From the IMG/VR virus record IMGVR_UViG_2061766007_000763: a stretch of DNA of 20,000 bases; one strand, 5' to 3'. The notes under the pieces were generated by a model. That model had not been told where the DNA came from. It made no database searches and saw only the letters and a list, made by a program, of their open reading frames with translations. Position numbers and translations under genes: made by a program. The DNA comes from an uncultured virus (IMG/VR IMGVR_UViG_2061766007_000763). Lineage: Duplodnaviria; Heunggongvirae; Uroviricota; Caudoviricetes. Positions 3,908 through 20,000 of the stretch are shown piece by piece (position 1 is the stretch's first letter; each line of letters opens with the position of its first letter).

Positions 3908-3948
3908 AAAAAAAATAAAGGGCCGTGACTCTCACGAGGTGGGCCCTT
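3908..3948 (-). terminator. Intrinsic terminator ending the tRNA/tmRNA transcript
   Basis: AAGGGCC...GGCCCTT stem followed by TATTTTTTTT on minus strand. Confidence 0.75.
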
Positions 3949-4451: not shown

Positions 4452-4456
4452 TTAAC

Positions 4457-4678: not shown

Positions 4679-4711
4679 ACGCTTATGTGTTTGTAATAAT
4701 CCAAATAGTAG

Positions 4712-4783
4712 TTGCGGGAGAGGGAGTCGAACCCCCGACCTTTGGGTTATGAACCCAACGCGCTACCACTGCGCTACCCCGCG
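4712..4783 (-). tRNA. tRNA-Met(CAT), initiator type
   Basis: CGCGGGG acceptor with C1:A72 mismatch; anticodon arm TTGGG-TTCATAA-CCCAA with three G-C pairs; T loop TTCGACT; followed by CTA. Confidence 0.92.
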
Positions 4784-4930
4784 GTATTGGGACGAATCCC
4801 ACGCCCCTGCCGTTACCTGTTTATTGGGGAGTTTGCAGAACGGCTAAACGCTCTCTCTTGGTTGCACCTCATTTTATCTTCTCAGACTCGTGAGGCTTCT
4901 GATATTTATAAAAAGGACAAAAAAGCATAA

Positions 4931-5001
4931 TGGTGTGCTGGCAGGATTCAAACCTGCGACCTCCGGTACTACCCGGTGCTCTCTCGCTGAGCTACAACAC
5001 A
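4931..5001 (-). pseudogene. Degenerate tRNA / tRNA-like element, anticodon unassignable
   Basis: TGTGTTG/CAGCACA acceptor, GCTC/GAGC D stem, GCAGG-TTTGAAT-CCTGC T arm, ends CCA; D loop lacks GG and anticodon arm is CCGG-GTAGTA-CCGG. Confidence 0.7.
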
Positions 5002-5021
5002 CTTAGAGACAGAACCTTTGC

Positions 5022-5231
5022 TTATCTCTTTTTCTTTGCTGAAGATGTAGTCTTTGTGCTGGCTACCTTCTTCATTGCCTTTGCTTGTGCCTCAAGGCCC
5101 TTAGCTTGCTGCTGGGCCACCTTGACCGCCCGGAACATACGAGCTTTGTCGGCCTTAATCTCTTGGTAACGCGCCATCGTGTAAGCGTCATCTTGCGCTT
5201 GCCACTTCTGCTGTTCACTTATTTTACTCAT
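5022..5231 (-). CDS. Small basic hypothetical protein
   Basis: 69 aa, Lys/Ala-rich, directly downstream of a canonical promoter. Confidence 0.75.
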   Translation of the reverse strand: MSKISEQQKWQAQDDAYTMARYQEIKADKARMFRAVKVAQQQAKGLEAQAKAMKKVASTKTTSSAKKKR

Positions 5232-5250
5232 ATTTCATTTTATTTGCAGG

Positions 5251-5282
5251 CAAAAATATGAAAGTATTTTCATCTATGCAAA
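5251..5282 (-). promoter_or_regulatory. Bacteroidetes sigma-70 promoter for the tRNA/tmRNA cluster
   Basis: TTTG (5282-5279), 20 nt spacer, TATTTTTG (5258-5251). Confidence 0.8.
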
Positions 5283-5409
5283 TTCCGGAGTAAAAATCAG
5301 TCTTTCAGCTTACCGGAACCACCACACATCCAAGTAATAACCTCGCTGAGAACGAAGAGAAATGATAATATACCCATATTGTTTATGTTTTAAGTTATAC
5401 AATTCGTTT

Positions 5410-5591
5410 TTATAATCCGAGAGCCGTTTTAGCTCTATTCCAGATGACGAGAAGACTACTTGCTTTTTCACCGTCATTTACGTAGTCTCCGTTNNNNNNN
5501 NNNNNNCCCACTCGTCAAAGGTAAGCATACCATCTGACATCTGCAATGCCTCAAGAGCATCGTTGTAAATTTCTTCGACTTTTTGTTCCAT
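5410..5591 (-). CDS. Hypothetical protein (joined across N gap)
   Basis: MEQKVEEIYNDALEALQMSDGMLTFDEW, gap, NGDYVNDGEKASSLLVIWNRAKTALGL*. Confidence 0.5.
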
Positions 5592-5596
5592 AGTTA

Positions 5597-6355
5597 TTAT
5601 GTAAATAGTTTCTTGATTTTTGAATACATAGCTCTCGCTCTCTGCTCGGTGTAAGGCATGCCAGATGCGGTAGTCTGACCAAGCTGGTTNNNNNNNNNNN
5701 NNNNNNNNNNNNNNNNNNNNNNNGATAACACCATGAGTTCTGGAGGTATAGGCATCGACATATTTCTTGAAGAAAATATTTGCCGGATTCCTGCGTGCCT
5801 CCTCAGCTTTCTTTTCTGCAGCCGCACTGAGCGCATTCCTGCTGATGGAATTGGGAGAACCGAGTTTGGATATCTTCCGTCCTTTTTTCGAGACATGGAA
5901 TCCATTCTCGGCAATATTCTTTTTAATGGCAGACATAGCTTCTTGGGTTCGGCCCTGTATGAGTTCCTTTTCGCATTGAGCGGCGAAACTAAAAGCAAAG
6001 ATAATCATTTCGTCAATAGCTTTCATGTGGGCAATGTCAAGGTCGAGGTTCATCTTAACTACCACAAGGCGAATTTTGCGAGGTTGGAGCTCGTCGTGCA
6101 AGAGCTTATTAACATCGAAAATGTTTCTGCCTAAGCGCGACAATTCCGATACAATAAGAGTGTCGCCCTCCTTGAGAATTTTAACAAGTTCAAAAAGTTT
6201 ACGTTTTTTGTAAGTAACAGAGCCACTTATTCCTTCGTCGCTTACAACAATATCCGCTTTCATATTGTGAAAGCGCAACCAGTCATCAACAGCGTTCCTT
6301 TGCTGCATAAAGGTCTGGTCTTGAGTCGAAACTCTTTCGTAAANNNNNNNNNNNN
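5597..6355 (-). CDS. Serine recombinase, resolvase/invertase family (start in N gap)
   Basis: In-frame upstream of the tracked ATG reads YERVSTQDQ (catalytic Ser); DEGISG, GDTLIVSELSRLGRN, AQCEKELIQGRT; C-terminus NQLGQTTASGMPY..KLFT* in the frame after the gap. Confidence 0.9.
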
Positions 6356-7332
6356 NNNNNNNNNNNNNNNNNNNNNNNNNNNNNNATCAAATATTTCGCA
6401 TCTGTATGTCCATTGTGATAAGCGTATAAAACGGTGTCATATCTCATATTGTATATGCTGCATAATTCCTTTAGGGAGATATTCTTGCCTTCGTGTTCTA
6501 AGAACAATCGACATGGAGATTTATATGTCTTTACTTTATAAGCTTGGTTTTTATATGTTTCAATAAGAGTACCCAAATCTTTTGTCTGCAAGTAGTACGC
6601 GCTATGAACTCTTTTATAGTTCATATTGTAAACTTCACACCATTCTTTTAATGTTTTTCTTTCTCCGTTATATTCTATAAAAACTTGATACTCTTTTTTC
6701 TTTTGGCGATTTTTGAATGTTCTTATAAGATACCCCATATTTTTATGACCACTATACCAAGCGTTTTGAACGTTTGCATAAATCATATCGTATTTTTCGC
6801 ACCATTGTTTAAGAGTCATTGTTTTTCCTCGATACGTAATATAGATATTGGTTCTCCTGTTATTGTTNNNNNNNNNNNNNNNNNNNNNNNNNNNNNNNNN
6901 NNNNNNNNTGTTATCAATCCTATCCAGACTCATTTTTTCAGGTTTTTCACCCATATCTGCGTAAAAATTCTCAAAAGAGTGAAGCCATCTATCGCAAACC
7001 TTTATACCTCTTCCGCCGTATCTTGGATAGTATNNNNNNNNNNNNNNNNTGGCCTTAATGCCGGCCCACACTCGGTGCGTTGCCGTTAAAGACATTCCAT
7101 GCTTAAATGTTTTTTCTTTGGTTAATTCCTTTCTCCAACATCCGCACGATTTATGGGGTGTCTTTTTGGATGTAAAATAGCTAACATTTCTCACAACGTG
7201 GTTTCCGCAATCACAAACGCAGTTATAACAATAAAGGCCCTGACTGTCTTTGTGAGAAAAACTCAATACGAGTAAACGCCCGATTTTCTTACCTATCAGG
7301 TTCTTGTTTGTTTTTAACTCGAATTTTTCCAT
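6350..7332 (-). CDS. Phage HNH homing-endonuclease-like protein with three C-terminal repeats (stop probably in N gap)
   Basis: [52 protein letters not shown]; repeats [36 protein letters not shown]. Confidence 0.88.
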
Positions 7333-7335
7333 AAT

Positions 7336-7472
7336 AAAAAACGAAGGGTAACTTTCAAGAAGCGGCCTCCTACCTCCGCGACTTTACTCATTACCCTTGT
7401 TATATTGCACTTGCTCAGTAGGAGTTGAGCATAGTTTATGCAAAAATAAAAAAACGTTTTTAATTATCCAAA
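7336..7472 (-). promoter_or_regulatory. Promoter plus structured leader of the HNH gene
   Basis: TTTG (7472-7469), 20 nt, TATTTTTG (7448-7441); hairpin 7412-7431; hairpin 7344-7398 followed by a U tract. Confidence 0.7.
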
Positions 7473-7517
7473 ATAAAGTATATTTGGCTGCACCGGTACG
7501 TATCACCGATACCGATG

Positions 7518-7525
7518 CAAAGATA
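7518..7525 (-). promoter_or_regulatory. Bacteroidetes -7 promoter element
   Basis: TATCTTTG with CTTG 20 nt upstream. Confidence 0.55.
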
Positions 7526-7553
7526 GTGATATGAATTATAATTCACAAGCAAA

Positions 7554-7910
7554 TCACGGATTTTTTCTCCAATCCCTATCCGGTATCGGATAATTATAAT
7601 CATGCTTATAATCTTCCGGGAACTTCCATGAATCTCTTCCAAGAAAATCCTTGACTATTTTTGTTCCATAAGGAACTATTATTACTTCAGGAGGGAGAGT
7701 TATCCTATCATTGGTTGGCATACCATATTTCATAATAGTCTCATACCTTTCATGCAAAGGAACATCGTCAAGGTTGTTGTAGATTTTGCCGTCATAAATT
7801 ATGGCAGNNNNNNNNNNNNNNNNNNNNNNNNNNNNNNNNNNNNNNNNNNNNNNNNNNNNNNNNNNGCCGAATCCTTGCAGTCTGGAATCTACATAAATAC
7901 ACTCCCACAT
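7554..7910 (-). CDS. Hypothetical protein
   Basis: Likely start MWECIYV just after the previous stop; spans an N gap. Confidence 0.6.
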   Translation of the reverse strand: MWECIYVDSRLQGFGXXXXXXXXXXXXXXXXXXXXAIIYDGKIYNNLDDVPLHERYETIMKYGMPTNDRITLPPEVIIVPYGTKIVKDFLGRDSWKFPEDYKHDYNYPIPDRDWRKNP

Positions 7911-7914
7911 AATG

Positions 7915-8385
7915 CTAAGATTTTTTTTCGTTACACTTTCTTTTGGGTACGGGAAAAGCGGAGCCATCAGCATTGCATTTCTTGATGAAATCTTCCATCT
8001 CATGCCATATCCAATCTCCGCACTCCACTATCTGACCGACTGAGAATGTTTTCGTGTGGTCATATTTGGTTTTGAAAAAAGAGCAAAGGTCCTCAAGCGT
8101 TGGAGTGTTGATTGTGAAAAGCTCAAAAGAATCAACGCAAATCTCGTCCGAATTGCGGTGCTCATAAACGGCATAATTCATCTGCTTGATTCCGTAGTGA
8201 AGAGAGAACACATATCCTTGCTCTCGGCAGTTCTCAAGTCGGCCTACCTCAATATTCGCCATGTAGCGTTCTTTTTCTTTGTCCCAAGAATTATCAATGA
8301 TATTCTCTTTAAAATATCTCAGATAAGCTAATACACACTGCGCCTGCCAGTTTGCGCCATCATCTAAATAGTTTTTAATTTCCAT
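7915..8385 (-). CDS. Hypothetical protein
   Basis: 156-aa ORF with AT-rich leader. Confidence 0.8.
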   Translation of the reverse strand: MEIKNYLDDGANWQAQCVLAYLRYFKENIIDNSWDKEKERYMANIEVGRLENCREQGYVFSLHYGIKQMNYAVYEHRNSDEICVDSFELFTINTPTLEDLCSFFKTKYDHTKTFSVGQIVECGDWIWHEMEDFIKKCNADGSAFPVPKRKCNEKKS

Positions 8386-8401
8386 AATTTTATTGATTTA
8401 G

Positions 8402-8674
8402 TTAAAACATTCTATCTGCATAAACAAGCCCGTTTTTATCGCGAACCTGATAGGATGACATTTCATACTCCATACCATAGCTCTTGCAGACCTCTTTTTG
8501 ATGGTTAGCAATATGAGTTATCTGTACGAAAGCATTAATTACCCCGTTAAGGCTGTAAATAAACTCGGCCTTCATTACGTTCTGCAACCGATAATCAATC
8601 GGATGATACTTTTTATCGCCCGGCCTCTTGCGGTAAATGCAGAGAAACAAATCAACTCGTTTTTCGTTTGCCAT
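8402..8674 (-). CDS. Hypothetical protein
   Basis: Start MANEKRV placed by the junction motif. Confidence 0.7.
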   Translation of the reverse strand: MANEKRVDLFLCIYRKRPGDKKYHPIDYRLQNVMKAEFIYSLNGVINAFVQITHIANHQKEVCKSYGMEYEMSSYQVRDKNGLVYADRMF

Positions 8675-8731
8675 AATTGTAGTTTTTATGTGAAACATTT
8701 GTGGATAGGGCGATGTCACTCGCCCGTGTCC

Positions 8732-8992
8732 TCAGCATTCGCCCAGCGGCTTTAATCCTACATACTGATATTCAGCGTCACCGGTGCCGTTTTTCTTGAA
8801 CGTTTGATAGAGTGCACAACCACGTTCGGTATCATGCGAATATGCCTCGCCCGGCTGGAAGATTCCTCTCTCCCAAGTTGCAGGCGGTAAAGAACCGCAC
8901 AAATCCCAAAAGACTTCATTTGAGATAAACTGACCGACTTGAACCTTGAGTTCTCCGTCCTTGTTCCATTGCTCCATTGTGTAAACTTCCAT
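8732..8992 (-). CDS. Hypothetical protein
   Basis: 86 aa bounded by hairpin elements; LPP..FQPGEAYSH..YQTF. Confidence 0.8.
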   Translation of the reverse strand: MEVYTMEQWNKDGELKVQVGQFISNEVFWDLCGSLPPATWERGIFQPGEAYSHDTERGCALYQTFKKNGTGDAEYQYVGLKPLGEC

Positions 8993-9170
8993 AATCGTAA
9001 AAATTCAGTGAATAATTCGTTTGGCCGCACGCAACTTGTTCAGCAGTTGCGTGCGTAGAGGATAAATCGCCCTATTTGCTCGTTCTTTTTCGCTACAATC
9101 AAATATCTTCTTTTTGACGTAGGATTTACCGACTGAGAAAAGAAATGCGATTGTGCGTCAATTTTCGAGG

Positions 9171-9338
9171 TCATTCGTTGCCGGTGTAATTCGGAGTGAT
9201 TTTGTAACTGAAGGCGTAGTCGTTTTTTACGTACCATCTTCCTTCGCTTATGGCCTCCGTTTTCGTAGGATAAATCTTACGGAAATAGACGGCTCCATCT
9301 TTGTTCTTGCATTCGAGCAAGGTTCGGATTGGTTTCAT
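9171..9338 (-). CDS. Hypothetical protein, 55 aa
   Basis: Manual translation MKPIRTLLECKNKDGAVYFRKIYPTKTEAISEGRWYVKNDYAFSYKITPNYTGNE*; preceded by TTAACC motif. Confidence 0.65.
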   Translation of the reverse strand: MKPIRTLLECKNKDGAVYFRKIYPTKTEAISEGRWYVKNDYAFSYKITPNYTGNE

Positions 9339-9359
9339 ATCAAAAGTAAGGTTAAGTTA

Positions 9360-9927
9360 TTAAAAATCGAAATACTCCTTTGCTATATCAATAACTCGTC
9401 TTAAACCGTCATAGCGACCTTGTGTGTAAAAGGTCGGTGCGACATCCCATTCATGCTTTGCCAGCTCANNNNNNNNNNACATTGTCTGTATCGACTTCAT
9501 AATCGCCGGTCAAATCGTACTGATTATTTTCATGCCAAATATAACCGCATTCATGGTAGGTATAATAGACCTCCAAATCGGCATCCCAATCAAACTGGGC
9601 ACCCTCATAATAACCAGACTTGGTGTTAGCCTCGATTGCTATCTCTAAATCAATGCCACAAAATCTTAATGATTTTGACTTGCGTGCAAGGACCTTCCAA
9701 TCATCTCGCCATTCCTCGTCAACCGAGTGGTAGCCTTTTTCCTTTAAAAGTTCGATGCAGTTTTCCTGACTCCATTCGAAGTCAAATTCGGTCTGACTTT
9801 CGTCATACTGACCGATGAGGCTTTCATCAAGGTCATTATCCTTAATGGTTTCCTCATCATAATACTTGTTGAATCCGTAAGCAAATATCTTGCTCGAATT
9901 ACAACGGCTAAAATTTGGTGTACTCAT
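9360..9927 (-). CDS. Acidic hypothetical protein with SGYYEG motif (the part after the gap may be a different gene)
   Basis: ORF from 9927 to the gap at 9469-9478; open frame ELAKHEW..KEYFDF* after the gap. Confidence 0.7.
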
Positions 9928-9987
9928 AACTAATGAATTAAAGGTTGTGGGCCCCGAAAAACCATCACGTTTTCCGGAGTCAAATTG

Positions 9988-10284
9988 TCAGTCCTCGTCA
10001 TAGCAATCTCCATCGCAGATATTTCCAGCCGCAATCCAAACGATATACATGTTCAACTTTTTGCGGTCAAAACTCTTAACATTTTCGATGCCGTAATCCT
10101 TCAGCACTTTCTTAATTTGTTCGGAGCTAATTTTATCAAGTTGTTCCTTGATGTAATCTTCTTCGATTAATTCCTCGACATCTGCGTCACAACTTCCCAT
10201 GTGACAACCGCGCTGGGCATCCTCTTCTTTCATTTTGATTTCAAAGGTCCCTAAATGCCACGCATCAAATTCCGTTACTTTCAT
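9988..10284 (-). CDS. Acidic hypothetical protein, paralog of 13684..14157
   Basis: Shared FDAWxxGTFxIKM, LIEEDYI, VLKDYGIE, MYIVWxAAG. Confidence 0.85.
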   Translation of the reverse strand: MKVTEFDAWHLGTFEIKMKEEDAQRGCHMGSCDADVEELIEEDYIKEQLDKISSEQIKKVLKDYGIENVKSFDRKKLNMYIVWIAAGNICDGDCYDED

Positions 10285-10357
10285 AAGCCATAATATTTAG
10301 TGAATTAATGATGGTGAAAACAGATGACATTCAGCCATCCGTTTTCCTGCAGGTTTC

Positions 10358-10580
10358 TCACGAGTTTACCGCAAAGGCATTTCTGAGGTTTCCATGAGCC
10401 GAAATAAGATATTCAATATGCCCGTCAATTACTTCCTTGAAATACTCCGGAGAATCGAACGTTGTTCGGTCCATTGAAAATTCATCGTTGTCAGGCAGAT
10501 TAGTAACATTGCAATTTTTGCGGATGTATTTGTCGGTATGCCAAGCCNNNNNNNNNNAGAAAGTCTTCCATATTCGCCAT
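10358..10580 (-). CDS. Hypothetical protein (start 10580 or 10571)
   Basis: Bounded by hairpin elements; joined across a short N gap. Confidence 0.65.
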
Positions 10581-10631
10581 ATTTTAGTGAAACAATTTGT
10601 GCAAGAGGGAGAACCAAATCTCCCTCTCGTT

Positions 10632-11087
10632 TTAGCCGTAGATAACCTCGCCGAAAACGATAATCTGCATGAGGTTGTCTGCATCGTTAAGGTCGAAGTC
10701 CACGCAATCGTTCTCTGCAAAATTGCTGAAACTTTTACGGCAATAAGGCTCCGTGCTTGAGGCAGCTTTTGCAAGGCCATTTTCTATGTCCTTCAGAGTG
10801 ATTGTATAATCCATCCGTTCACAATCCTCATCCCACATGTGCTCGATTTTGCCGTAATAATCGCCTGCTTCTTCAGCATACATATCGGAGACGGTAATCT
10901 TACCTCCGTTTAAGAGTATTTTTGCGAGCTTATCCTCAAAGCAGTCATTCTGAGCTGCAAAAGGCTTACCATCATAATCATCGTAGTTGTAGTCAACTGC
11001 GAAGATAGAACTGCCGTAAAAAGCGGTACTAAAGAGATTCACCAAATCTGCATGGGTAATCTCAGTGATTTTTGTTTCAATTTTCAT
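10632..11087 (-). CDS. Acidic hypothetical protein
   Basis: 151 aa ending DADNLMQIIVFGEVIYG; bounded by hairpin elements. Confidence 0.85.
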   Translation of the reverse strand: MKIETKITEITHADLVNLFSTAFYGSSIFAVDYNYDDYDGKPFAAQNDCFEDKLAKILLNGGKITVSDMYAEEAGDYYGKIEHMWDEDCERMDYTITLKDIENGLAKAASSTEPYCRKSFSNFAENDCVDFDLNDADNLMQIIVFGEVIYG

Positions 11088-11147
11088 AGCCGTTGTTGTT
11101 AGTGAATAAAAATAGTCAGAAAGCGGAGAACAAACTCCGCTTTCCGT

Positions 11148-11546
11148 TCAGTCGATAAACTCGGTAAAATCTATCTTTTCCGCAGGTATGTTTCCTCTCA
11201 TGGGTTTTTTGGAGAAAACATAGGTCACAACATTGGTCGTAACATTCTTGCTGCCATAGATGAAATACCCAGCATTTTGGAGAACTTCAAATGCAGTTTT
11301 CATTTCCTCAGTTCTGATTCTAATGGGGTCTGAATANNNNNNNNNNCATTTGCCATCTTTATAAAAGTTAATATATAATTGGTAAAAACCCGAAGTAGGT
11401 TTCAATTTTATATCGAAACCTCGCTCTTTAAAAACTTCATACCCCATGTTCTTTACGATTTCTTCGCAGATTGACTGCACTACTTCTTGTCTTACTTCGG
11501 TCGGCTGTACGTAATCGTTTGCCGGAATGTTGATTTTAATCTCCAT
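11148..11546 (-). CDS. Hypothetical protein
   Basis: 132 aa bounded by hairpin elements. Confidence 0.8.
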   Translation of the reverse strand: MEIKINIPANDYVQPTEVRQEVVQSICEEIVKNMGYEVFKERGFDIKLKPTSGFYQLYINFYKDGKXXXXYSDPIRIRTEEMKTAFEVLQNAGYFIYGSKNVTTNVVTYVFSKKPMRGNIPAEKIDFTEFID

Positions 11547-11610
11547 AACTAAACTGATTTAGGTTAAACAAAATTGGTGACGAAAGCGGAACCTAATCCG
11601 CTCTCGTTTT

Positions 11611-12234
11611 TTAAGACACGTAGTACATGAAATCTATTAGTGCTTTTTTGAGGTGCAATGAATCTGTTTTGTAATCACATTGACCAGCCAGCGGAACTCT
11701 TCTCGAAATATCCCATCTATCTCCATATCGCTCAATTACAAGGCTTCCGGCATAGAAATTATTCTTACCATATCTCACCACTATTGCATTGTAGCATGGA
11801 TAGTTTGATTCCAAAATCCTTTTTCCGTATTCAACTTTGATGCTGGTTATTGAAGTGAAAAACTTCTTGTAACGTTCATACTCAACCGAATGGGTCTCTT
11901 TATTCTCCCACGACTGAGCAAATTTTATCATTGGTTCAATGCACAAATTTAGGGCCTCTTCAGTCGTTTTGCAGGCATCTATCTTTGTAGCAAAATCTTC
12001 AACTTTTTTTATTCTCCTTTCAGCGATAGAAATCATTAGGTCCTCACTTTCCTTACTAAAGCAACCTTGATATTTATTCCTTCCTTCACCTTCAGAAAAG
12101 CAAACCCATCCGGGGTATGCAAAGTCAATCTTTTTACCAAACCACTTTTCGAGCTCTTTCAACTCTTCTTCGTTATACATGGTTTCTTCGCCCAAATCTT
12201 CGAGCCGATTGCACATCTCTTTTAATCTACACAT
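11611..12234 (-). CDS. Hypothetical protein
   Basis: 207 aa from ATG 12234; bounded by hairpin elements. Confidence 0.8.
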   Translation of the reverse strand: MCRLKEMCNRLEDLGEETMYNEEELKELEKWFGKKIDFAYPGWVCFSEGEGRNKYQGCFSKESEDLMISIAERRIKKVEDFATKIDACKTTEEALNLCIEPMIKFAQSWENKETHSVEYERYKKFFTSITSIKVEYGKRILESNYPCYNAIVVRYGKNNFYAGSLVIERYGDRWDISRRVPLAGQCDYKTDSLHLKKALIDFMYYVS

Positions 12235-12298
12235 AATCAATTTTATTTTAGGTTAACAAATTGTGAGTGCATCTTCGTTCAAAAAGATGCACCCGAAA

Positions 12299-12619
12299 TC
12301 ACTCTTTCCAATAGAACTTCTGAACGAGCCCGTGTTCATCTCCCGTTATGAGGGAATAAAGATTGGAATTTGGGTCCTCTTTTTCGGCCAGCCTTCTCCT
12401 CAGCACTTTTATAGAGTCTTGGCGGTCCAGCCATGCCTCCTCATAAAAGGACCAAATTATTACGTTATCATGCCATGATGCCATAGCCGGAGAATGGTCT
12501 ATGAAACCAAGGATTCTTTTGCGGTCCTTGGTGCCATTCCCATAGTCAAATACTTCTACAATCCAATCCTCCATGACGTTTTTGTCGTCAATCGGAGCAG
12601 GTTTCAAATTCTTGCTCAT
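12299..12619 (-). CDS. Hypothetical protein
   Basis: Start MSKNLK shortly after the previous stop. Confidence 0.75.
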   Translation of the reverse strand: MSKNLKPAPIDDKNVMEDWIVEVFDYGNGTKDRKRILGFIDHSPAMASWHDNVIIWSFYEEAWLDRQDSIKVLRRRLAEKEDPNSNLYSLITGDEHGLVQKFYWKE

Positions 12620-12630
12620 ATCGTTCAGTT

Positions 12631-12873
12631 TTAAAGTTTGAAAAATACATCTTCTTCGGTTCCGAAATCCAACCACCATTCTTCGGCGAGGTTGTTCTCT
12701 TCTCCGTACTCGTTCAAAAGGTCGCGAATTTTATCGCAAATTCCAGTACCGGTAGATGTCATGTTCAAAGGGCATCTCATTCGGTCTATCATATCCAATG
12801 CGACTTCTTCCTCCGCATCGGTCCACGTCTTTTTCTCTCTGACGTAGTCAATAGCTTTTTTCCAATGATTCAT
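12631..12873 (-). CDS. Acidic hypothetical protein
   Basis: 80 aa following a junction element. Confidence 0.8.
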   Translation of the reverse strand: MNHWKKAIDYVREKKTWTDAEEEVALDMIDRMRCPLNMTSTGTGICDKIRDLLNEYGEENNLAEEWWLDFGTEEDVFFKL

Positions 12874-12932
12874 AACTTTTTTTTAGGTTAAATTTGTTGC
12901 AGTGGCCCGGGCCCACCGAACCACTGCATTTT

Positions 12933-13613
12933 TCACTTCTTGTCTGCGTCCACGATTATCCAATCCATTCCTTCGTCATAAAGGAGAGGCATAATTAGAG
13001 CCCAACTTCCGTCCTCGCATTCGGTCATTGCTGCATGGTTGTAATCCTCAAAACTGATTTTGAAGTTGTTTTTCATCTCCAAGAAACCGCAGAACTTCTT
13101 GAAGTTGTCAAGGTCAAAATAGCACTGGTTTCCAATTCTGATAACGCAGCGCGGAACGTATCCCTTGCCAGCCGCTTTCTTGCGTGCCTTGTGCTCGCGT
13201 AAAGCGTCATACACTTTCTCGGTGTCAACCTCGACCTCATTCTTGTTGTTCTTTGGCTTGCAGACTTTGTAATTCGGATAACGGCCATCAACTGACTCTC
13301 CGAATTTGTCGATGATTTTGCCTTCAAGTTCAGGCTCATAATCGGACTTCAAACATACGAGTATGTGTCCGTCACTTGCAACGTCATATCCATTATCATG
13401 GAAAACGCCGTTCATGACGGGGCGCAAAGCATCATCGGAAACCCAATCATAAATATTGAACTTACCGACACTACGCGGAGTCTCCAAAAAGATGACTCGG
13501 TTTATGCAAGCTCTAACGAGCTCTGCATTCTTCTTCAGAATATCGGCATTCTCCTCGCTGGGATTCAACCAATTCAGTGCACTACGCAATTCGCTTAAAG
13601 ATTCATTCTTCAT
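12933..13613 (-). CDS. Protein with a DNA polymerase III beta-clamp-like domain
   Basis: SDDALRPVMNGVF..VASDGHIL..VDGRYPNY resembles the DnaN central-domain motifs RP.L.G, VATDGHRL, G.YP.Y; 226 aa, shorter than a full clamp. Confidence 0.65.
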   Translation of the reverse strand: MKNESLSELRSALNWLNPSEENADILKKNAELVRACINRVIFLETPRSVGKFNIYDWVSDDALRPVMNGVFHDNGYDVASDGHILVCLKSDYEPELEGKIIDKFGESVDGRYPNYKVCKPKNNKNEVEVDTEKVYDALREHKARKKAAGKGYVPRCVIRIGNQCYFDLDNFKKFCGFLEMKNNFKISFEDYNHAAMTECEDGSWALIMPLLYDEGMDWIIVDADKK

Positions 13614-13683
13614 AACTACTTTAATTTTAAGTTAAACAATAAGTTGTGATTTGAGGGCCGTTCAAAGCCCTCAAACCTTTGCA

Positions 13684-14157
13684 TTATCCGACCTTGTAAT
13701 AAATGGCCTCTCCGTTACTAAAAATCCCACCGCAAACCAGCTCATGTTCGCAGCACTGCTCAAAGACATCTTCGACCTCCCTGATGAGTTCGTCACGAAC
13801 CTCGCGTATTTTCTTTATCAGTTTTTCGGCATGGATTTTGCTCAGTCCTTTGTTGTCCAACCAATTATCGTCAATATCGTCACAATTTCCGTCAATAATA
13901 TCTCCGGCTGCAAGCCATACGATATACATCTCTAATTCGTGACGTGTTTTTGAATCGGCATCCTCTATGCCGTAATCCTTCAAAACCTCGGCCATTTGTT
14001 CATCGCTGATTTCATCCAATTGTTTGCGGATGTAATCTTCTTCGATAAGCTGCTCGCAATCGTAGTCACAANNNNNNNNNNNNNNNNNNNNNNNNNNNNN
14101 NGTCATCTTAATTGAAAACGTACCGAATTTCCATGCGTCAAATACCACTAATTTCAT
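13684..14157 (-). CDS. Acidic hypothetical protein, paralog of 9988..10284 with C-terminal extension
   Basis: Aligned by eye; extension ends GIFSNGEAIYYKVG. Confidence 0.85.
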   Translation of the reverse strand: MKLVVFDAWKFGTFSIKMXXXXXXXXXXXCDYDCEQLIEEDYIRKQLDEISDEQMAEVLKDYGIEDADSKTRHELEMYIVWLAAGDIIDGNCDDIDDNWLDNKGLSKIHAEKLIKKIREVRDELIREVEDVFEQCCEHELVCGGIFSNGEAIYYKVG

Positions 14158-14220
14158 AGTCATTTTTGTTAAGTGAATAAATTGTGGCCCGAAAAACATT
14201 CACGTTTATCGGACCTGTTT

Positions 14221-14956
14221 TTAGTCATCCGCCCACCGCACTGATTTGTACGGGCCACCATCGATATTTTCGGAGCCTGAAATCCAGTGCGNNNNNNNNN
14301 NNNNNNNNNNNNNNNNNNNNNNNNNNNNNNNNNNNNNNNNNNNNNNNNNNNNNNNNNNNNNNNNNNNNNNNNNNNNNNNNNNNNNNNNNNNNNNNNNNNN
14401 NNNNNNNNNNNNNNNNNNNNNNNNNNNNNNNNNNNNNNNNNNNNNNNNNNNNNNNNNNNNNNNNNNNNNNNNNNNNNNNNNNNNNNNNNNNNNNNNNNNN
14501 NNNNNNNNNNNNNNNNNNNNNNNNNNNNNNNNNNNNNNNNNNNNNNNNNNNNNNNNNNNNNNNNNNNNNNNNNNNNNNNNNNNNNNNNNNNNNNNNNNNN
14601 NNNNNNNNNNNNNNNNNNNNNNNNNNNNNNNNNNNNNNNNNNNNNNNNNNNNNNNNNNNNNNNNNNNNNNNNNNNNNNNNNNNNNNNNNNNNNNNNNNNN
14701 NNNNNNNNNNNNNNNNNNNNNNNNNNNNNNNNNNNNNNNNNNNNNNNNNNNNNNNNNNNNNNNNNNNNNNNNNNNNNNNNNNNNNNNNNNNNNNNNNNNN
14801 NNNNNNNNNNNNNNNNNNNNNNNNNNNNNNNNNNNNNNNNNNNNNNNNNNNNNNNNNNNNNNNNNNNNNNNNNNNNNNNNNNNNNNNNNNNNAGGTCTTA
14901 GGCTCATGGCCTTTTTCGCGTGAATAATTCAGAGGGATGATTCTTACTTTTGCCAT
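14221..14956 (-). CDS. One or more hypothetical genes, mostly hidden by a ~600-nt N gap
   Basis: Start MAKVRIIPLNYSREKGHEPKT after a junction element; stops just before the next hairpin. Confidence 0.45.
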
Positions 14957-15016
14957 AGTGATAAAATTTGGTGAATAAATATAGCTCGTAGCGGACTATC
15001 AAATCCGCTACGATTT

Positions 15017-15408
15017 TTACTTAATAGTNNNNNNNNNNNNNNNNNNNNNNNNNNNNNNNNNNNNNNNTCTTTATAGTAGCACGTAACCTTATATCCGTCT
15101 TTGGTCAGATATTTGGCTAAGGTTATCATCTCTTTGTAGTAGATGTTCAAGCGTATGTTTTTCAGCTTGCCCCAAAAGATGCTCTCGAAGTCTCCGTCTT
15201 TCAAGCATCTTTTCAGATGCGGTTCGTCAACGAAAAAGCACAGCAGATTATGTCTCCAAGGCAGCTCCGGATTTTCGGGATTTTCTTCCTTGTAAATGTG
15301 GAGGAATGCTGCGAGACAATTACTCTGTCTGATTTGGATAGGAAATTTGTTCCCGTTTTGTACTAACGTCAATCGTCCGATTGTTGTTCCTGAATAACGT
15401 AATGCCAT
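15017..15408 (-). CDS. Hypothetical protein (3' end approximate)
   Basis: ORF from 15408 into the N gap; expected to stop before the hairpin at 14986-15013. Confidence 0.75.
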
Positions 15409-15475
15409 AATAGTTTGAATTTAGGTGAATAAATATGGTCCCATTACGGATATTCAAATCCGCAATGGTTTTTGG

Positions 15476-15595
15476 TCAGCAAGGAGGATTGGGTTCACAC
15501 TCCTCTATTTCACATACAACTAAGTAATCCCCATAGGTATATTCTCCTTTCAGGTACCTTTCCCATGCAATTTCGTCTGCCGTTTTATCGTCCAT
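15476..15595 (-). CDS. Acidic microprotein, 39 aa
   Basis: MDDKTADEIAWERYLKGEYTYGDYLVVCEIEECEPNPPC* exactly fills the space between two junction elements. Confidence 0.7.
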   Translation of the reverse strand: MDDKTADEIAWERYLKGEYTYGDYLVVCEIEECEPNPPC

Positions 15596-15663
15596 AACAT
15601 TTGATGTTTAATAGGTTAAATAATGCTCCGGAATGGTCTATTAAAACCATTCCGAATTGTTGC

Positions 15664-15828
15664 TCAGATTTGAATCCAAGGAGCGTCTATCAAATCGCCC
15701 AGACAAGTTTGGTAGTTTTGTTTTGCCGAATCCATGTGGTCATGTTGGCAGTCATTTATCATCTGTCTTAAAGCGTTACACACAAGTTCATAATTGAACT
15801 CATCAAGTAAGATTCTTTTTGCTTTCAT
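15664..15828 (-). CDS. Hypothetical protein, 54 aa
   Basis: MKAKRILLDEFNYELVCNALRQMINDCQHDHMDSAKQNYQTCLGDLIDAPWIQI*; stop precedes a hairpin. Confidence 0.7.
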   Translation of the reverse strand: MKAKRILLDEFNYELVCNALRQMINDCQHDHMDSAKQNYQTCLGDLIDAPWIQI

Positions 15829-15832
15829 AATT

Positions 15833-16182
15833 TTAATCGTTTACGCAGGCATAATATGCCTCGTTAATCATCTCGACCAAATTGGTCAGGCCAGCCAGCC
15901 TATCATCCGAGTCGAAATAATAGGGGTAAAATTCGGTGCGTGAAACGGAGGTGTTTCCGCGATTGCAGTTCGATACCGAAACAAAGCCCTTGTNNNNNNN
16001 NNNNNNNAAAATCTGCCGCATGAAGTCGATACTTGTTTGCCTATCGAAATGACAGCCTTTGCAGGGTCATAAAGTTGGTCAACCAACTGCTTCACGATTT
16101 TGACCACTTTCTCTTCGCCCAAATCGTCCACGATGTCATAGCACTCATTCGAGAGCACTTCCTTGATGTCATTTACGTCCAT
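15833..16182 (-). CDS. Hypothetical protein (joined across N gap)
   Basis: MDVNDIKEV..CGRF, gap, KGFVSVS..YACVND*. Confidence 0.7.
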
Positions 16183-16248
16183 AATCTCAAATTGTTTTAG
16201 TGAATAAATAATTGTGAGCGAATGCCGGCCAAAGCATTCGCCCTATGT

Positions 16249-16509
16249 TCAGTCCTCAAAATAGGAGTCAAGAAGGCAGAGAGAAAACTTCTCGTCTTTT
16301 GTGTCTGTGGAAGTGGGCACATTTCCTTCGTAGAAATACACCGGAATACCCTTCTCTTTATTGTAGTAGTCTCTATGCCTCGTCACCCTACCTCCTTTTT
16401 CCTTAATCCAATAGAGGTCATCTTTCAGTGCGTTTTTCGCGTTATCCAAGTCTTGAAAATATCGGTCAGTTTTTCGACCGCCGATGTTTTTGCGGTAAAC
16501 CCAAAACAT
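16249..16509 (-). CDS. Hypothetical protein
   Basis: 86 aa; stop precedes a hairpin. Confidence 0.75.
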   Translation of the reverse strand: MFWVYRKNIGGRKTDRYFQDLDNAKNALKDDLYWIKEKGGRVTRHRDYYNKEKGIPVYFYEGNVPTSTDTKDEKFSLCLLDSYFED

Positions 16510-16512
16510 AAT

Positions 16513-16801
16513 TCAACCGATTTTATAGAGATAAATCAAGTCATCACCCTGCTCTATTTCTGNNNNNNNNNNNNNNNNNNNNNNNNNNNNNNNNNNNNNN
16601 NNNNNNNNNNNNNNNNNNNNNNNNNNNNNNNNNNNNNNNNNNNNNNNNNNNNNNNNNNNNNNNNNNNNTCCACCACTCTTCGGTTTGCTGGCCTAATTCC
16701 TCGTTGAACTCAGGCACATCTTTTATGCCCAAAAACTCTCCGTTGATACTCTTCTGGACTATCCAGTCGAGAATCACAAGTCTTTTTGCTTTAATTTCCA
16801 T
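16513..16801 (-). CDS. Hypothetical protein (joined across N gap)
   Basis: MEIKAKRL..EEWW, gap, EIEQGDDLIYLYKIG*. Confidence 0.65.
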
Positions 16802-16869
16802 AATCAAATTTGTTAGTGAATTAATGGTGTGATTCCGGAGTATTTCGCAACTCCGGAACCGAGGCTGAT

Positions 16870-17507
16870 TTAGATACGAATCGGATAGCCTGAGATAATG
16901 CCGTGTTCTTGGATGAAATCTCTGACGTATAAATTCGTCTCTTTTTTGTACTGCTCGATTATCTCCTTCATCTTAATGGCTCTCTTGTAGTCCCTGACGT
17001 AGCATTTCTTGGCGGCTTTTCTCTCCTCGATTCTTTTGTCGAGTATTCCGTCCAATCCGTTTTCCTCACGATACCGCTTGGTTTCGGACCAAGAAACACG
17101 CTGGTCAGAACTAAGAGAAAACTTTACCTCAAGTTCATCATCGAAAATGCGGCCAAAATAATGCTGGATTCTCAGCTTAATTACACCCATGTATTTTTTG
17201 GTCGGATAATCAGTCTCAAAAGTGAGGGTTGAAAAAACGTTGAGTTTAGTGTCCTTCAAGTAACCCTTGATTCTCTCATTGATTTTGTTCGCANNNNNNN
17301 NNNNNNNNNNNNNNNNNNNNNNNNNNNNNNNNNNNNNNNNNNNNNNNNNNNNNNNNNNNNNNNNNNNNNNNNNNNNNNNNNNNNNNNNNNNNNNNTTTCT
17401 TCGCGCTCTCTTTGCTCTTTTCGTTCGGCCAGCATTTGCGCTTGCTCTTCTTCGCTCGCATTCAGAAACTTTTTCTTCCATGCGACATAGTCAAATTTTT
17501 GTTCCAT
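16870..17507 (-). CDS. Hypothetical protein with coiled-coil N-terminus (joined across N gap)
   Basis: MEQKFDYVAW..EQREREE, gap, ANKINERIK..GYPIRI*. Confidence 0.75.
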
Positions 17508-17599
17508 AATCTGATTAAATTAAGTGAGTTAATATTTGCTCCCTCGGAACNNNNNNNNNNNNNNNNNNNNNNNNNNNNNNNNNNNNNNNNNNNNNNNNN

Positions 17600-17786
17600 N
17601 NNNNNNNNNNNNNNNNNNNNNNNNNNNNNNNNNNNNNNNNNNNNNNNNNNNNNNNNNNNNNNNNNNNNNNNNNNNNNNNNNNNNNNNNNNNNNNNNNNNN
17701 GTCGATAATTCAGATTGCGAAATGTTGCGCTGGGCCTTGTTGAAAAACTGCTCGAGAGTTTCGTTCCCGTCAATGCGCATTTTCAT
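17600..17786 (-). CDS. Hypothetical protein, 3' end in N gap
   Basis: MKMRIDGNETLEQFFNKAQRNISQSELS; ATGA overlap with the upstream gene. Confidence 0.55.
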
Positions 17787-18105
17787 CTGGTAAGAATCAC
17801 CCTGACAAATCCNNNNNNNNNNNNNNNNNNNNNNNNNNNNNNNNNNNNNNNNNCGGAACGGAGGCGATATTTATGGAAGGTATCACCCTTCGGATTCATT
17901 GCGCTTGCATCGAGTGCAATTTCGGTGTCGGCTGGGAACTCATTCAAGAGTCGTTTTGCGAGGTCCAAATCGGCCTCGTTACTCGGGTAGATTCTCATAC
18001 CGGATTCCTTCCATCGGTCGAGGGCGAAAAATTCAACGCCGAATCTCGACTCCATTTCGTNNNNNNNNNNNNNNNNNNNNNNNNNNNNNNNNNNNNNNNN
18101 NNNNN
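17783..18105 (-). CDS. Hypothetical protein (start probably in N gap)
   Basis: Open frame MESRFGVEF..; junction motif at 18109-18172 predicts an ATG near 18105. Confidence 0.6.
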
Positions 18106-18176
18106 NNNGTGATAATTGATTAAGTTAAACAATAAAAATAGCTGGCGCGAAATCATTCAAGAAAACGCGCCATAAT

Positions 18177-18443
18177 TCAGCACTCAATAAAGTAATGTAA
18201 ATATCGCCCCATTTGTGCGTTGCAATTATAGTAAACCAAACTGTTACAAATTTGGTCGAAGGTTTCGCCTTCAGCATCCGGCTCGTTTTTCTGCAAGCAA
18301 TATGGACCGCTCCACATGTTATCAAATCTCATCTTACAAGTTTGGAACCAAATCTTGACTCCTTTTTCGTACAGGTTTCTTGCTCTCGTTTTGTTTACCT
18401 GCTGAACTTGCTTTTTCAGCCGTTCGGAATAAAATCTTTTCAT
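18177..18443 (-). CDS. Hypothetical protein
   Basis: 88 aa, YYNCNAQMGRYLHYF; bounded by hairpin elements. Confidence 0.8.
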   Translation of the reverse strand: MKRFYSERLKKQVQQVNKTRARNLYEKGVKIWFQTCKMRFDNMWSGPYCLQKNEPDAEGETFDQICNSLVYYNCNAQMGRYLHYFIEC

Positions 18444-18515
18444 AGAATAAAAGTGTTTTAGTTAATGAATCAATTTTGTAGGCCCGAAAACATTCACGTT
18501 ATTCGGACCATGATT

Positions 18516-18839
18516 TTACGCTGCTGAATCGAGGTCTTCATCCTCAATGAAATCCTCGTTGTATTTCACCCACGAGAAATCATCGAAACAATAGAACCAT
18601 TCTTCGAGGTATTCTTTGTTGTCATATTTGGCCCAAAATTCGGTCCATTCCTCATCGGGTATTCCGGCCTCTCTTCCGAGCTCGGTTATATAGCTCATAA
18701 AGCCGTCAAAAAATTCACATACTGAGTTCTCGTCAATTCCCATGTTATTCCGATAGTCGGCAATGAACAAAGAATTGAGCACAATTTGCTGGCGCAGATT
18801 CCAGAGGTCATCCGCGTTGAAATTCTCGAATCGTTTCAT
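18516..18839 (-). CDS. Highly acidic hypothetical protein
   Basis: 107 aa, about 27 D/E versus 8 K/R by hand count; bounded by hairpin elements. Confidence 0.85.
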   Translation of the reverse strand: MKRFENFNADDLWNLRQQIVLNSLFIADYRNNMGIDENSVCEFFDGFMSYITELGREAGIPDEEWTEFWAKYDNKEYLEEWFYCFDDFSWVKYNEDFIEDEDLDSAA

Positions 18840-18911
18840 AAATTAAGTTTTTAAGTGAATAAATAAGTGAATTTGTTCGTGCATATCCAGCCAAGAATAT
18901 GCACGATGTTT

Positions 18912-19219
18912 TCAGGCTCGCATCCGCAGCCGTTCGGCCGCTCGTTTTTCCCTATCGAAAAACCGCTCGCAAACCTCAACCATTTCTTTCGCATGAAACT
19001 CACGGAAATATTCGGTTATCAATTTGCGTCTGTTTGGTTTCTTGATTTCAGCACCGAACCGCTCACGCAAATTAGCCTCATAATTCGCCCAAAAATCCTT
19101 GTCNNNNNNNNNNNNNNNNNNNNNNNNNNNNNNNNNNNNNNNNNNNNNNNNNNNNNNNNNNNNNNNNNNNNNNNNNNNNNNNNNNNNNNNNNNNNNNNNN
19201 NNNNNNNNNNNNNNNTCAT
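18912..19219 (-). CDS. Hypothetical protein (joined across N gap)
   Basis: ATG at 19219; after the gap DKDFWANYEANLRERFG..AERLRMRA*. Confidence 0.65.
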
Positions 19220-19281
19220 CTCTTTTTATTGTTTGAATTTGTGAGCCGAAAACCGGTCAGAGTTTCCGGCCCTGATGTGGG

Positions 19282-19499
19282 CTATAATTTCGGGTCATTG
19301 ACTATGTCCGAAATTTCACGCTCCAAAGAGAGGTAGTATTCGAGGCCGGAATTTAGGTCCAATCCTTCAGCTCTCTTTTTGCGCAGTTTTCTTATAGCTC
19401 GTTCGGTCGCGTTAAAACGGCCACAAATCGGCCATTTGNNNNNNNNNNNNNNNNNNNNNNTCGGATGCTCATTTCGTTCACGTTTTTAGGTTCATCCAT
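19282..19499 (-). CDS. Hypothetical protein (joined across N gap)
   Basis: MDEPKNVNEMSIR, gap, KWPICGRFNATERAIRKL..VNDPKL*. Confidence 0.65.
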
Positions 19500-19562
19500 G
19501 TCGTTCGTTTTTTAGGTTAATTTGTGAGCATGGAACCGGTCAGGATTCCATGCCCTATTTGT

Positions 19563-19670
19563 TCATCCGAAAATGCTGAACACAAACCAGATGATAAACC
19601 AGCCTATTATTGCAACCACAAAACAGGGCGCATAATATATAATACTATTCAGTATATTTTTCAGTCTCAT
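19563..19670 (-). CDS. Small membrane peptide, 35 aa
   Basis: MRLKNILNSIIYYAPCFVVAIIGWFIIWFVFSIFG*; ATGA overlap; stop precedes a hairpin. Confidence 0.6.
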   Translation of the reverse strand: MRLKNILNSIIYYAPCFVVAIIGWFIIWFVFSIFG

Positions 19671-19913
19671 ATTGCTATTGATGTTATAGGGTTATTTATT
19701 GACTCTGTTTTATCTATAATATCTATATAGATAATTTCACCTCCATAAGTGCTCACCAAAAGGTCNNNNNNNNNNNNNNNNNNNNNNNNNNNNNNNGGCA
19801 TTGAATGTGGCGATGTTTTCAGTCACCTTTCTGCCGTTCGCATAATGTTTCACAAACTGAAACTTTCTGAGCTTCAATGTTCGGCTCAGTTTTCTCATAA
19901 TTCTTTGTCTCAT
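19667..19913 (-). CDS. Hypothetical protein (joined across N gap)
   Basis: MRQRIMRKLSRTLKL.., gap, DLLVSTYGGEII..TSIAI*. Confidence 0.6.
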
Positions 19914-20000
19914 AATCTGATTATAATTTTTAGTGAATAAAAGTGGTTCGGCTGGGACCGGTCAAAATCCCAACCGATATTTGTCATAGTTTTACGGCTA

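Follow-up and report, generated by a model that had tools for sequence, protein, structure and literature searches.

Stable hairpins bound cistrons in several familiar settings, including intrinsic terminators, the repetitive extragenic palindromic (REP) elements of Escherichia coli operons and the RNase III sites of T7 early mRNA. Folded single-stranded DNA also provides the attC sites of integrons—which have conserved core sites at the stem base, extrahelical bases, a length of at least 57 nt and a tyrosine integrase beside the array—and the N4 promoters, which form 5–7 bp stems with 3-nt loops on the template strand. In T4-type phages, the promoter-early stem-loop (PeSL) elements are described as combining a stem-loop, an early promoter and a start codon, with insertions and deletions at the elements (PMC2839356; PMC4122927). 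Plant mitochondria offer a further case, as t-elements and acceptor-like stem-loops are described there as directing RNase P and RNase Z cuts (PMC1920247). Here, we analysed a 20,000-nt stretch of DNA from an uncultured virus (IMG/VR record IMGVR_UViG_2061766007_000763), referred to as the window, in which an array of small genes is punctuated by short hairpins and by a start motif that recurs upstream of the gene starts. This array is a real and strongly supported RNA hairpin family set within a cassette junction.

The reading that we consider somewhat probable is that of a composite cassette junction similar to the T4-type PeSL, in which an RNA hairpin at the 3' end of one gene (a weak terminator or a 3'-end protector) would be joined to a non-host start signal for the next. 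We file the locus with the PeSL elements because stop, stem-loop, shared signal and start recur in a variable array of small genes with insertions and deletions at the elements. The order of stop codon, stem-loop, conserved expression signal and start codon is common to both, the elements recur in a variable region that holds small genes whose functions are unknown, and genes are inserted, deleted or replaced at them—including the loss of a single open reading frame (ORF) between neighbouring elements. There are also differences. PeSLs, as described, carry sigma-70-like -35/-10 boxes (PMC2839356; PMC4122927), whereas the rumen-phage signal is not of the host promoter type; its junctions have no Shine-Dalgarno site; and its stems are longer (11–14 bp, perfect) and lack an adjacent U tract, while having conserved flanks (A at -1, A-C-N-A) and UGA-rich loops. 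The phage, moreover, is an uncultured one of Bacteroidota type and not a relative of T4.

The hairpins share with intrinsic terminators, REP elements and RNase III sites a stable, G+C-rich stem-loop just past the stop codon on the transcript strand, where it would be expected to block 3' exonucleases. They differ from intrinsic terminators in having no U tract directly after the stem, and from REP elements in that their stems are not copies of one sequence; relative to the classical T7 RNase III sites, the stems (12 bp, perfect) are too short and too regular.

A covarying hairpin family on the coding strand

Perfect stems of at least 11 bp, with G·U pairs allowed and loops of 4–8 nt, were sought on both strands of the window, in which all genes lie on the minus strand and 1816 bases are masked as N in 25 stretches that may hide further hairpins. 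The coding (minus) strand of 7401–20000 held 20 perfect hairpins and the opposite strand of the same stretch 2, while the same scan of positions 1–7400 found none on either strand; 100 dinucleotide shuffles gave a mean of 1.17 hairpins and a maximum of 6. Extending the copy list by allowing one mismatch and by means of a covariance model yielded 21 typical copies, one degenerate hairpin (18172–18143), one short hairpin of 6 bp (8725–8708) and one atypical hairpin (7520–7488), for a total of 24 in an array that spans 7488–19977 of the minus strand. The sequence-only reading, made before this analysis without database searches, had arrived at the same number, and the five hairpins that it gave as examples (at 19948, 13648, 12265, 10316 and 9026) are all present.

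A typical hairpin is found at ~22 of ~32 gene junctions, as tallied from the ORF lists. The stem begins 1–11 nt past the stop codon in 33 of 35 copies, and the next ATG follows the hairpin at a distance of 22–37 nt—never less than 22 nt. Within a whole hairpin of ~30 nt, the stem is 12 bp long in 14 of 36 copies, 11 bp in 8, 13 bp in 8, 14 bp in 2 and irregular in 4. The loop measures 6 nt in 16 of these copies, 4 nt in 8 (two of them GAAA) and 7 nt in 1, and it is closed by a U·G pair in 12 of 31 and by C-G in 10 of 31. UGA lies within the loop in 23/35 copies. The helix is preceded by an A at -1 in 28/35 and followed by a tail of the form A-C-N-A, with A at +1 in 24/35, C at +2 in 30/35 and A at +4 in 28/35; the commonest tail is ACAA (15 of 36), ahead of ACTA (4), ACCA (2) and GCCA (1). 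NCCA, as ACCA or GCCA, thus occurs in 3/36. Further downstream, T occupies positions +6 to +9 in 20–26 of 35 copies, so that the T-rich run begins only at +6. In agreement with the sequence-only reading, no U tract directly follows the stem: only 5 of 22 hairpins pass a lax test for one (at least 5 T in 8 nt, starting 0–2 nt past the stem).

Covariation, the balance of wobble pairs and the folding energies together show that the hairpin acts in the RNA of the coding strand. Searched with a covariance model trained on 7 copies, the window gave 19 matches at E<1, every one of which lies on the minus strand; no plus-strand site scored above 10.3 bits. When two related sequences (L118 and L119, described below) were added, the matches numbered 32 at E≤1, again all on the coding strand. 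In the model-fitted alignment, which includes the 7 training sequences, 97.6% of 368 cells are paired and 12/12 stem pairs change on both sides, with a covariation score of 1.19 versus 0.28 in shuffles (0/500 reach 1.19); slid-register controls were 36–50% paired. Covariation had been proposed as a check on the family, and the family withstood it. Over the symmetric stem positions of 36 hairpins we counted 366 Watson-Crick pairs and 63 G·U pairs against 0 A·C on the coding strand, which bears out the earlier suggestion of a single-stranded structure on that strand. On average, the sense RNA folds at -17.5 kcal/mol and the antisense at -12.7 kcal/mol, the sense form being the more stable in 35 of 36 cases, and the gap between strands shrinks from 4.7 kcal/mol with RNA parameters to 1.0 kcal/mol with DNA parameters.

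Homologous junctions in L119 point the same way. In the orthologous pairs 19977/L890, 19272/L1302, 13677/L5642 and 12928/L6403, the stems differ only by switches among G·U, G-C and A-U: the counterpart of 19977–19948 (L119 890–919) has C-G for U·G and the tail ACAA for ACCA; that of 19272 (L119 1302–1331) shows G·U/G-C switches; and those of 13677 (L119 5642–5671) and 12928 (L119 6403–6433) each differ at three pairs, all of which are still paired. Hairpin 18906, compared with a related L119 hairpin at 1684–1713, has two changes on both sides of a pair. The conservation is not uniform, as 15656 and its L119 counterpart at 4573 keep the outer stem and differ in inner stems and loops, and the L119 orthologue of the gene behind hairpin 9979–9952 is preceded by a different stem.

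As had been supposed, the hairpins match no Rfam family: a cmscan of the whole window at E≤1 reported only the tmRNA, two tRNAs and three weak chance matches. None of 52 loci found by a 17-mer gave a match to the covariance model, and we found no description of these hairpin elements in the literature that we searched.

Some finer features of the hairpins may be mentioned here. At the second stem position (alignment columns 6/45), G·U is the commonest pair (13/31), giving a recurrent 5'-GG...UC-3' base followed by ACAA. Many 5' flanks are A-rich (A at -1, -4 and -5 in 20–28 of 35), and for this reason several hairpins, viewed from the opposite strand, resemble ordinary terminators with a T run; such terminator-like plus-strand forms at 14986–15013, 11585–11602, 13650–13675 and 15629–15654 might stop antisense transcription. 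Whether the A-rich 5' flank and the T-rich 3' flank pair so as to lengthen the stem was also considered, with nothing general emerging (three copies, inspected by eye only). The loop UGA was likewise rejected as an in-frame back-up stop, since the three frames are used 6, 10 and 9 times, with none preferred.

A start motif before one class of genes

The second recurrent part of the junction is a 12-nt motif, TTATT(C/A)AC(Y)(W)AA, upstream of the next ATG. It scores at least 5.5 before 33 ORF starts of the window and L119, and in 29 of these 33 it ends 9–16 nt before the ATG. A 14-mer form of the motif has 16 matches at up to 3 mismatches versus 4.8 expected, 15 of them on the minus strand, while a scan with this form beyond the window returned single chance matches only. 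The motif accompanies 19–20 of the 21 typical hairpins and also occurs alone at three sites: 17520–17531 (ATG 17507), without a visible hairpin; 9352–9363 (ATG 9338), again without a hairpin and with a joint of a relative at 9358; and 8397–8408 (ATG 8385), also without one. Its position is fixed relative to the ATG and not to the hairpin, from which its distance varies. In the window, the genes for DnaB, the DnaD-like loader and the HNH endonuclease have no such motif in front of them, and it is thus specific to one gene class.

Sites of the form TTTG-N19-21-TAnnTTTG, which we take to be the Bacteroidetes promoter form, lie at about 7448, 5258, 3864 and 692 on the minus strand, all intergenic and outside the array. 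L119 has sites of the same form at 11046–11061, 12388 and 13379, and some of those in the replication-gene part stand only 6–19 nt from an ATG, so that their leaders would be very short. The idea that every junction has a host-type promoter was considered and rejected, as no typical array junction contains TTTG...TAnnTTTG, and sigma-70-like promoters show no excess (34 sites versus 41.7 in shuffles). An early-promoter consensus from the crAss-like phage phi14:2 was also set aside as a comparator, the available description giving no common motif before its early transcripts (10.1101/2020.03.07.982082).

The start regions bear on the host as well. Of 37 starts examined, only 2 show a Shine-Dalgarno-like core; the start regions are enriched in A at positions -12 to -14 and -3. 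Start regions of Bacteroidota are described as having A enrichment and few Shine-Dalgarno sites, as at these phage starts (PMC7366714). From the scarcity of Shine-Dalgarno-like cores, the A enrichment upstream of starts and the Bacteroidetes-form promoter sites, we infer a host of Bacteroidota type. The source is an uncultured cattle-gut (rumen) phage.

As for what the motif does, within the PeSL-like reading we hold a phage-specific promoter to be somewhat likely, and a translation-initiation element would have just under an even chance.

Cassette exchange between related phages

L119, the first 16.4 kb of a 76.5-kb metagenome contig (JAEEGL012293114.1) to which a protein of 58% identity led, is syntenic with the window. 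Its hairpins are built alike and number at least 14; a count of perfect ones gave 16 on its coding strand against 3 on the other. Many borders of the homology blocks between L119 and the window fall at hairpin edges, for example at 15660, 14186 and 10602; at 14186, homology begins exactly at the 3' edge of hairpin 14215–14186. L118 retains the hairpin of 12294, behind which tail, motif and gene all differ.

Contigs from four further gut metagenome runs, aligned at 80% likeness or more, proved to be mosaic. Joints whose ends abut an N mask were dropped. Of the 17 informative end points that remained, 10 lie within the junction zones, which make up 15.9% of the unmasked array (binomial P ~7e-5, which is approximate because the end points are paired). 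One joint, 15433 to 15623, deletes a single 39-codon ORF exactly between two start motifs; another, 9981 to 15424, replaces a block running from motif to hairpin edge by 319 other letters; and a third, 9358 to 10630, also runs from a motif to a hairpin edge. The break points themselves vary, falling at the 5' edge of a hairpin, at its 3' edge or within the start motif, and this scatter agrees better with recombination through short stretches common to the junctions than with a single site-specific crossover. Of the alternatives listed by the sequence-only reading, cassette shuffling at PeSL-like elements is the one that the joints in relatives and the block borders in L118 and L119 back.

All four runs connect 13876 straight to 9479, an order also seen in L119, and the window therefore carries an extra block of ~4.4 kb (9479–13876). 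This block probably arose by recombination between the paralogous genes 14199–13684 and 10284–9988, both of which match phrog_14450.

A model of the junction

The mechanism that we infer treats the array as a run of single- or two-gene cassettes, each consisting of start motif, ATG, small ORF, stop, hairpin and A-C-N-A tail. The hairpin would mark each cistron's 3' end and protect it: transcription would be weakly terminated or attenuated there, and 3' exonucleases and scanning nucleases would be held off. The single-stranded, A/U-rich linker behind the hairpin would be the likely site of transcript ends or cuts. The start motif—which is not of the host promoter type and is confined to array genes—would then restart expression of the next gene. 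Because the junctions share ~20–25 nt of sequence, they double as recombination seams, and relatives differ by whole cassettes bounded there, as in the PeSL case. RNase E-type enzymes prefer to cut between RN and WUU, and the candidate linker, A-C-A-A-W-U-U-U, fits that preference. Within this model, the hairpin rather likely protects 3' ends where transcripts are processed or attenuated; that it is instead an efficient terminator for the polymerase transcribing the array, whichever that may be, has somewhat less than an even chance.

Several points weigh against this model or parts of it. With no U tract adjoining the stem (5/22 in the lax test, and a T-rich run only from +6), efficient intrinsic termination by a bacterial polymerase is unlikely. 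A hairpin with a T run does follow the tmRNA gene, at 3937–3923, and by comparison with it the array hairpins read as poor terminators for the host polymerase. A plain stabiliser would need no conserved A at -1, A-C-N-A tail or UGA-rich loop, and these features point to a specific factor. The pairing and covariation counts, as noted, come from an alignment fitted by the model. The junctions may be the only letters that stay conserved between diverged cassettes, which would partly explain why break points are placed there. Regarding the start signal, Bacteroidota starts are expected to have an A-rich box at -12 to -14 (PMC7366714), and the motif overlaps this box with its 3' half. The motif ends ~11–13 nt before the ATG and, if it were a -10-like box, the leader would be ~5 nt long. 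Lastly, an L119 gene with ATG 9945 has both a host-type box and the start motif.

Alternative explanations

The sequence-only reading had proposed a different role, namely that the hairpins mimic the acceptor plus T-arm minihelix of tRNA and that tRNA enzymes divide a long early transcript into single-gene mRNAs. The cuts would be made by RNase Z after the unpaired A at +1 or by RNase P at the 5' stem base, after which CCA may follow. If true, this would be tRNA punctuation in a bacterial virus, yielding single-gene mRNAs with protected ends. We regard it as unlikely, although the modal stem of 12 bp (14/36), the ~30-nt hairpin and the unpaired A at -1 and +1 that fix the helix ends speak for it. 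The A-C-N-A tail is common to the phage tRNA-fMet and tmRNA genes, whose acceptor stems are followed by A-CTA, and the commonest loops with their U·G closing pair resemble the T loop TTTGAAT of an odd tRNA (4933–5001); both features of the tRNA-type genes had been pointed out earlier and were confirmed here. As in t-elements, mRNA ends could be formed by RNase P or RNase Z recruited to structures that separate or flank coding regions, and a helix of about the length of acceptor plus T-arm is followed by an unpaired base. The details fail to carry the likeness further. The T-arm word by which t-elements were found, GGTTCRANYCC (PMC1920247), is exact in the tmRNA and tRNA-fMet genes and has 1 mismatch in the odd tRNA, yet no coding-strand hairpin contains it at up to 2 mismatches. 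A 7-nt loop is found in a single copy of 36, as opposed to eight with 4 nt (GAAA in two); the closing pair, U·G or C-G (Y-G), has the opposite polarity to G53-C61; stems range over 11–14 bp instead of a uniform 12; ACCA or GCCA ends 3 of 36 hairpins, and the ACCA at 19948 corresponds to ACAA in L119; loops differ in length and sequence between orthologous hairpins (15656 versus L119 4573); and no tRNA-clan match to the hairpins emerged from Rfam at E≤1. Given this loop length, T-arm word, closing pair, stem range, tail and loop variation among orthologues, the hairpins are not, by sequence, members of the tRNA-like class, and the minihelix as a statement of family membership is not supported. 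Cleavage by tRNA enzymes retains some small probability because plant mitochondria are described as using even simple acceptor-like stem-loops (PMC1920247). That stripped-down tRNA mimics let a Bacteroidota phage use the host RNase Z, and perhaps RNase P and the CCA-adding enzyme, seems quite improbable to us.

A further reading is at the level of translation, with a hairpin that insulates the start region from upstream structure and terminating ribosomes, or aids re-initiation by drawing stop and start together, and a motif that is the ribosome-loading site for a host not using Shine-Dalgarno pairing. A hairpin that never comes closer than 22 nt to the ATG and yet approaches the stop to 1 nt would suit such a device, as would a motif held at a fixed distance from the ATG and not from the hairpin; so would the near absence of Shine-Dalgarno-like cores (2/37) with A enrichment at -12 to -14, as in Bacteroidota (PMC7366714). 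We nevertheless give it little credence, since the replication genes of the same phage are also translated and have no motif, the stop-to-stem spacing varies over 1–11 nt, the loop UGA favours no frame (6, 10, 9) and the conserved tail is left unexplained. Least probable, and very unlikely in our estimate, is a function of folded single-stranded DNA, whether as attC-like recombination sites of the integron type or as N4-like hairpin promoters of an injected polymerase. Same-strand cassettes do end in hairpins of fixed shape and free sequence, relatives differ in cassette content at these points, a serine recombinase gene (5478–6308) adjoins the array, and a single folded DNA strand would be consistent with the strand bias too. 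G·T wobbles, though, are weak in DNA—the strand gap of 4.7 kcal/mol falls to 1.0 with DNA parameters—and G·U is the preferred pair at stem position 2 (13/31). Break points at the 5' edge, at the 3' edge and within the motif define no single crossover point; the hairpins, at ~30 nt, have neither conserved core sites at the stem base nor extrahelical bases; the window encodes no tyrosine integrase, its recombinase being of the serine type only; pairing favours the coding strand, unlike in N4 promoters; and the distance from hairpin to motif varies.

Individual junctions

Turning to the single junctions, all on the minus strand, the PeSL-like layout can be followed from the upstream end of the array. 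The first four hairpins have 12-bp stems: 19977–19948 (loop TTGACC, tail ACCA; 46.3 bits), with the motif at 19940–19929 and ATG 19913; 19555–19526 (loop CTGACC, tail ACAA; 52.4 bits), with motif 19523–19512 and ATG 19499; 19243–19272 (loop CTGACC, tail ACAA; 49.2 bits), which has no good motif before ATG 19219; and 18906–18877 (loop TTGGCT, tail ACAA), with motif 18862–18851 and ATG 18839. Hairpin 18509–18481 has 11 bp plus one unpaired A (loop GTGAAT, tail TACA; 20.3 bits), its motif lying at 18468–18457 and its ATG at 18443. The degenerate copy, 18172–18143, consists of 7+2 bp with three U·U oppositions and the loop TTGAAT (25 bits); it precedes a motif at 18131–18120 and a gene start that is N-masked. 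Two stems of 11 bp follow, 16860–16831 with an 8-nt loop and the tail ACAC (motif 16823–16812, ATG 16801) and 16243–16216 with the loop TTGGCC and the tail ACAA (30.4 bits; motif 16207–16196, ATG 16182).

The next pair delimits the ORF lost in a relative. Hairpin 15656–15627 (12–13 bp, tail GCAT) stands before motif 15622–15611 and ATG 15595, and the joints of relatives here run from 15433 to 15623 and from 15656 to 15837; hairpin 15468–15441 (11 bp, loop TTGAAT, tail GACC) stands before motif 15432–15421 and ATG 15408, with joints at 15424 and 15433. Further along are 15013–14986 (12 bp, loop TGAT, tail GCTA; motif 14978–14967, ATG 14956), 14215–14186 (12 bp with one mismatch, loop GTGAAT, tail ACAA; 45.4 bits; motif 14180–14169, ATG 14163) and 13677–13648 (12 bp, loop TTGAAC, tail ACAA; 50.8 bits; motif 13638–13627, ATG 13613). 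The 13-bp hairpin 12928–12898, with the loop TGGGC and the tail ACAA, leads to motif 12894–12883 and ATG 12873, and the 12-bp hairpin 12294–12265, with the loop TTGAAC and the same tail (46.5 bits), leads to motif 12259–12248 and ATG 12234.

Towards the downstream end, hairpin 11607–11580 (11 bp, loop TTAGGT, tail CACC) precedes motif 11570–11559 and ATG 11546; 11146–11117 (12 bp, loop TTTGTT, tail ACTA) precedes motif 11109–11098 and ATG 11087; and 10629–10602 (11 bp, loop TTTGGT, tail CACA) precedes motif 10594–10583, a relative having a joint at 10630. A 13-bp stem recurs at 10346–10316 (loop TGAAT, tail ACCA), with motif 10307–10296 and ATG 10284. Hairpin 9979–9952 (11 bp, loop GTGATG) has a motif-like stretch in its junction (9930..9981) before ATG 9927, and a joint at 9981, whereas the motif of 9055–9026 lies at 9015–9004, with ATG 8992 and a joint at 9007; in this latter hairpin (11 bp, tail GCCA), the 8-nt loop contains the TGA of the upstream gene. 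The short hairpin 8725–8708 (6 bp, loop GTGACA), recognized from a fold, begins 6 nt past the stop codon at 8734–8732, and the stretch just before its ATG, at 8698, is identical in L119 (ATG 8702).

The atypical last hairpin, 7520–7488 (10–12 bp, 9-nt loop), is kept in L119 around 9879–9917. A TAnnTTTG box overlaps its 5' arm in both phages (7525–7518 in the window; 9879–9886 in L119), and the hairpin may for that reason sit at the 5' end of a transcript. In L119, the last hairpin is followed by a start motif and a recombinase gene; the motif there would fall within a host-made transcript.

Genomic setting

Between 7400 and 20000, the window contains ~35 small ORFs, nearly all without a family, and these small array genes are probably expressed early. 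Positions 1–7400 encode a DnaB helicase (734–2089), a DnaD-like loader, a serine recombinase and an HNH endonuclease, along with RNA genes for a tmRNA (4116–4451), an initiator-type tRNA-Met and the odd tRNA. The RNA genes form a group at 4116–5001 on the minus strand, in which the tRNA-Met has C1 opposite A72 and the third, tRNA-like gene has an anticodon that ARAGORN did not name and the T loop TTTGAAT. None of them encodes CCA, the trailers being CTA, CTA and CAT, respectively. L119 has no counterpart of the HNH gene (7332–6286) or of the initial third of the recombinase gene (region 6023–7487), only ~360 nt separating the homologous blocks that flank this region there. With its own promoter-like site and a long hairpin and T run just before the ATG, the HNH gene resembles an inserted homing-type gene.

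The public sequencing runs that contain window DNA are cattle and goat gut metagenomes, none of them recorded as an RNA run. No near DNA match to the window was present in the phage collection that we searched, and protein searches of that collection gave distant matches only—at most 31% identity for DnaB, with 7915–8385 matching Caulobacter phages and 3393–3671 matching Vibrio and Janthinobacterium phages. Scans of IMG/VR found no relative.

Implications for gut phage biology

Bacteroidota hosts use neither Shine-Dalgarno sites nor sigma-70-type promoters, and almost nothing is known about the early gene expression of their phages. The junctions analysed here offer two short signals with which to approach it: a covarying hairpin with fixed flanks and no U tract, and a 12-nt start motif of non-host type that belongs to one gene class. 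Together, hairpin and motif could reveal a phage-specific promoter or a route of mRNA processing. The exchange of cassettes at regulatory junctions, described for T4-type phages, is thereby shown to extend to an unrelated lineage of gut phages, and the junctions may also serve as portable expression parts for the engineering of Bacteroides or Prevotella.

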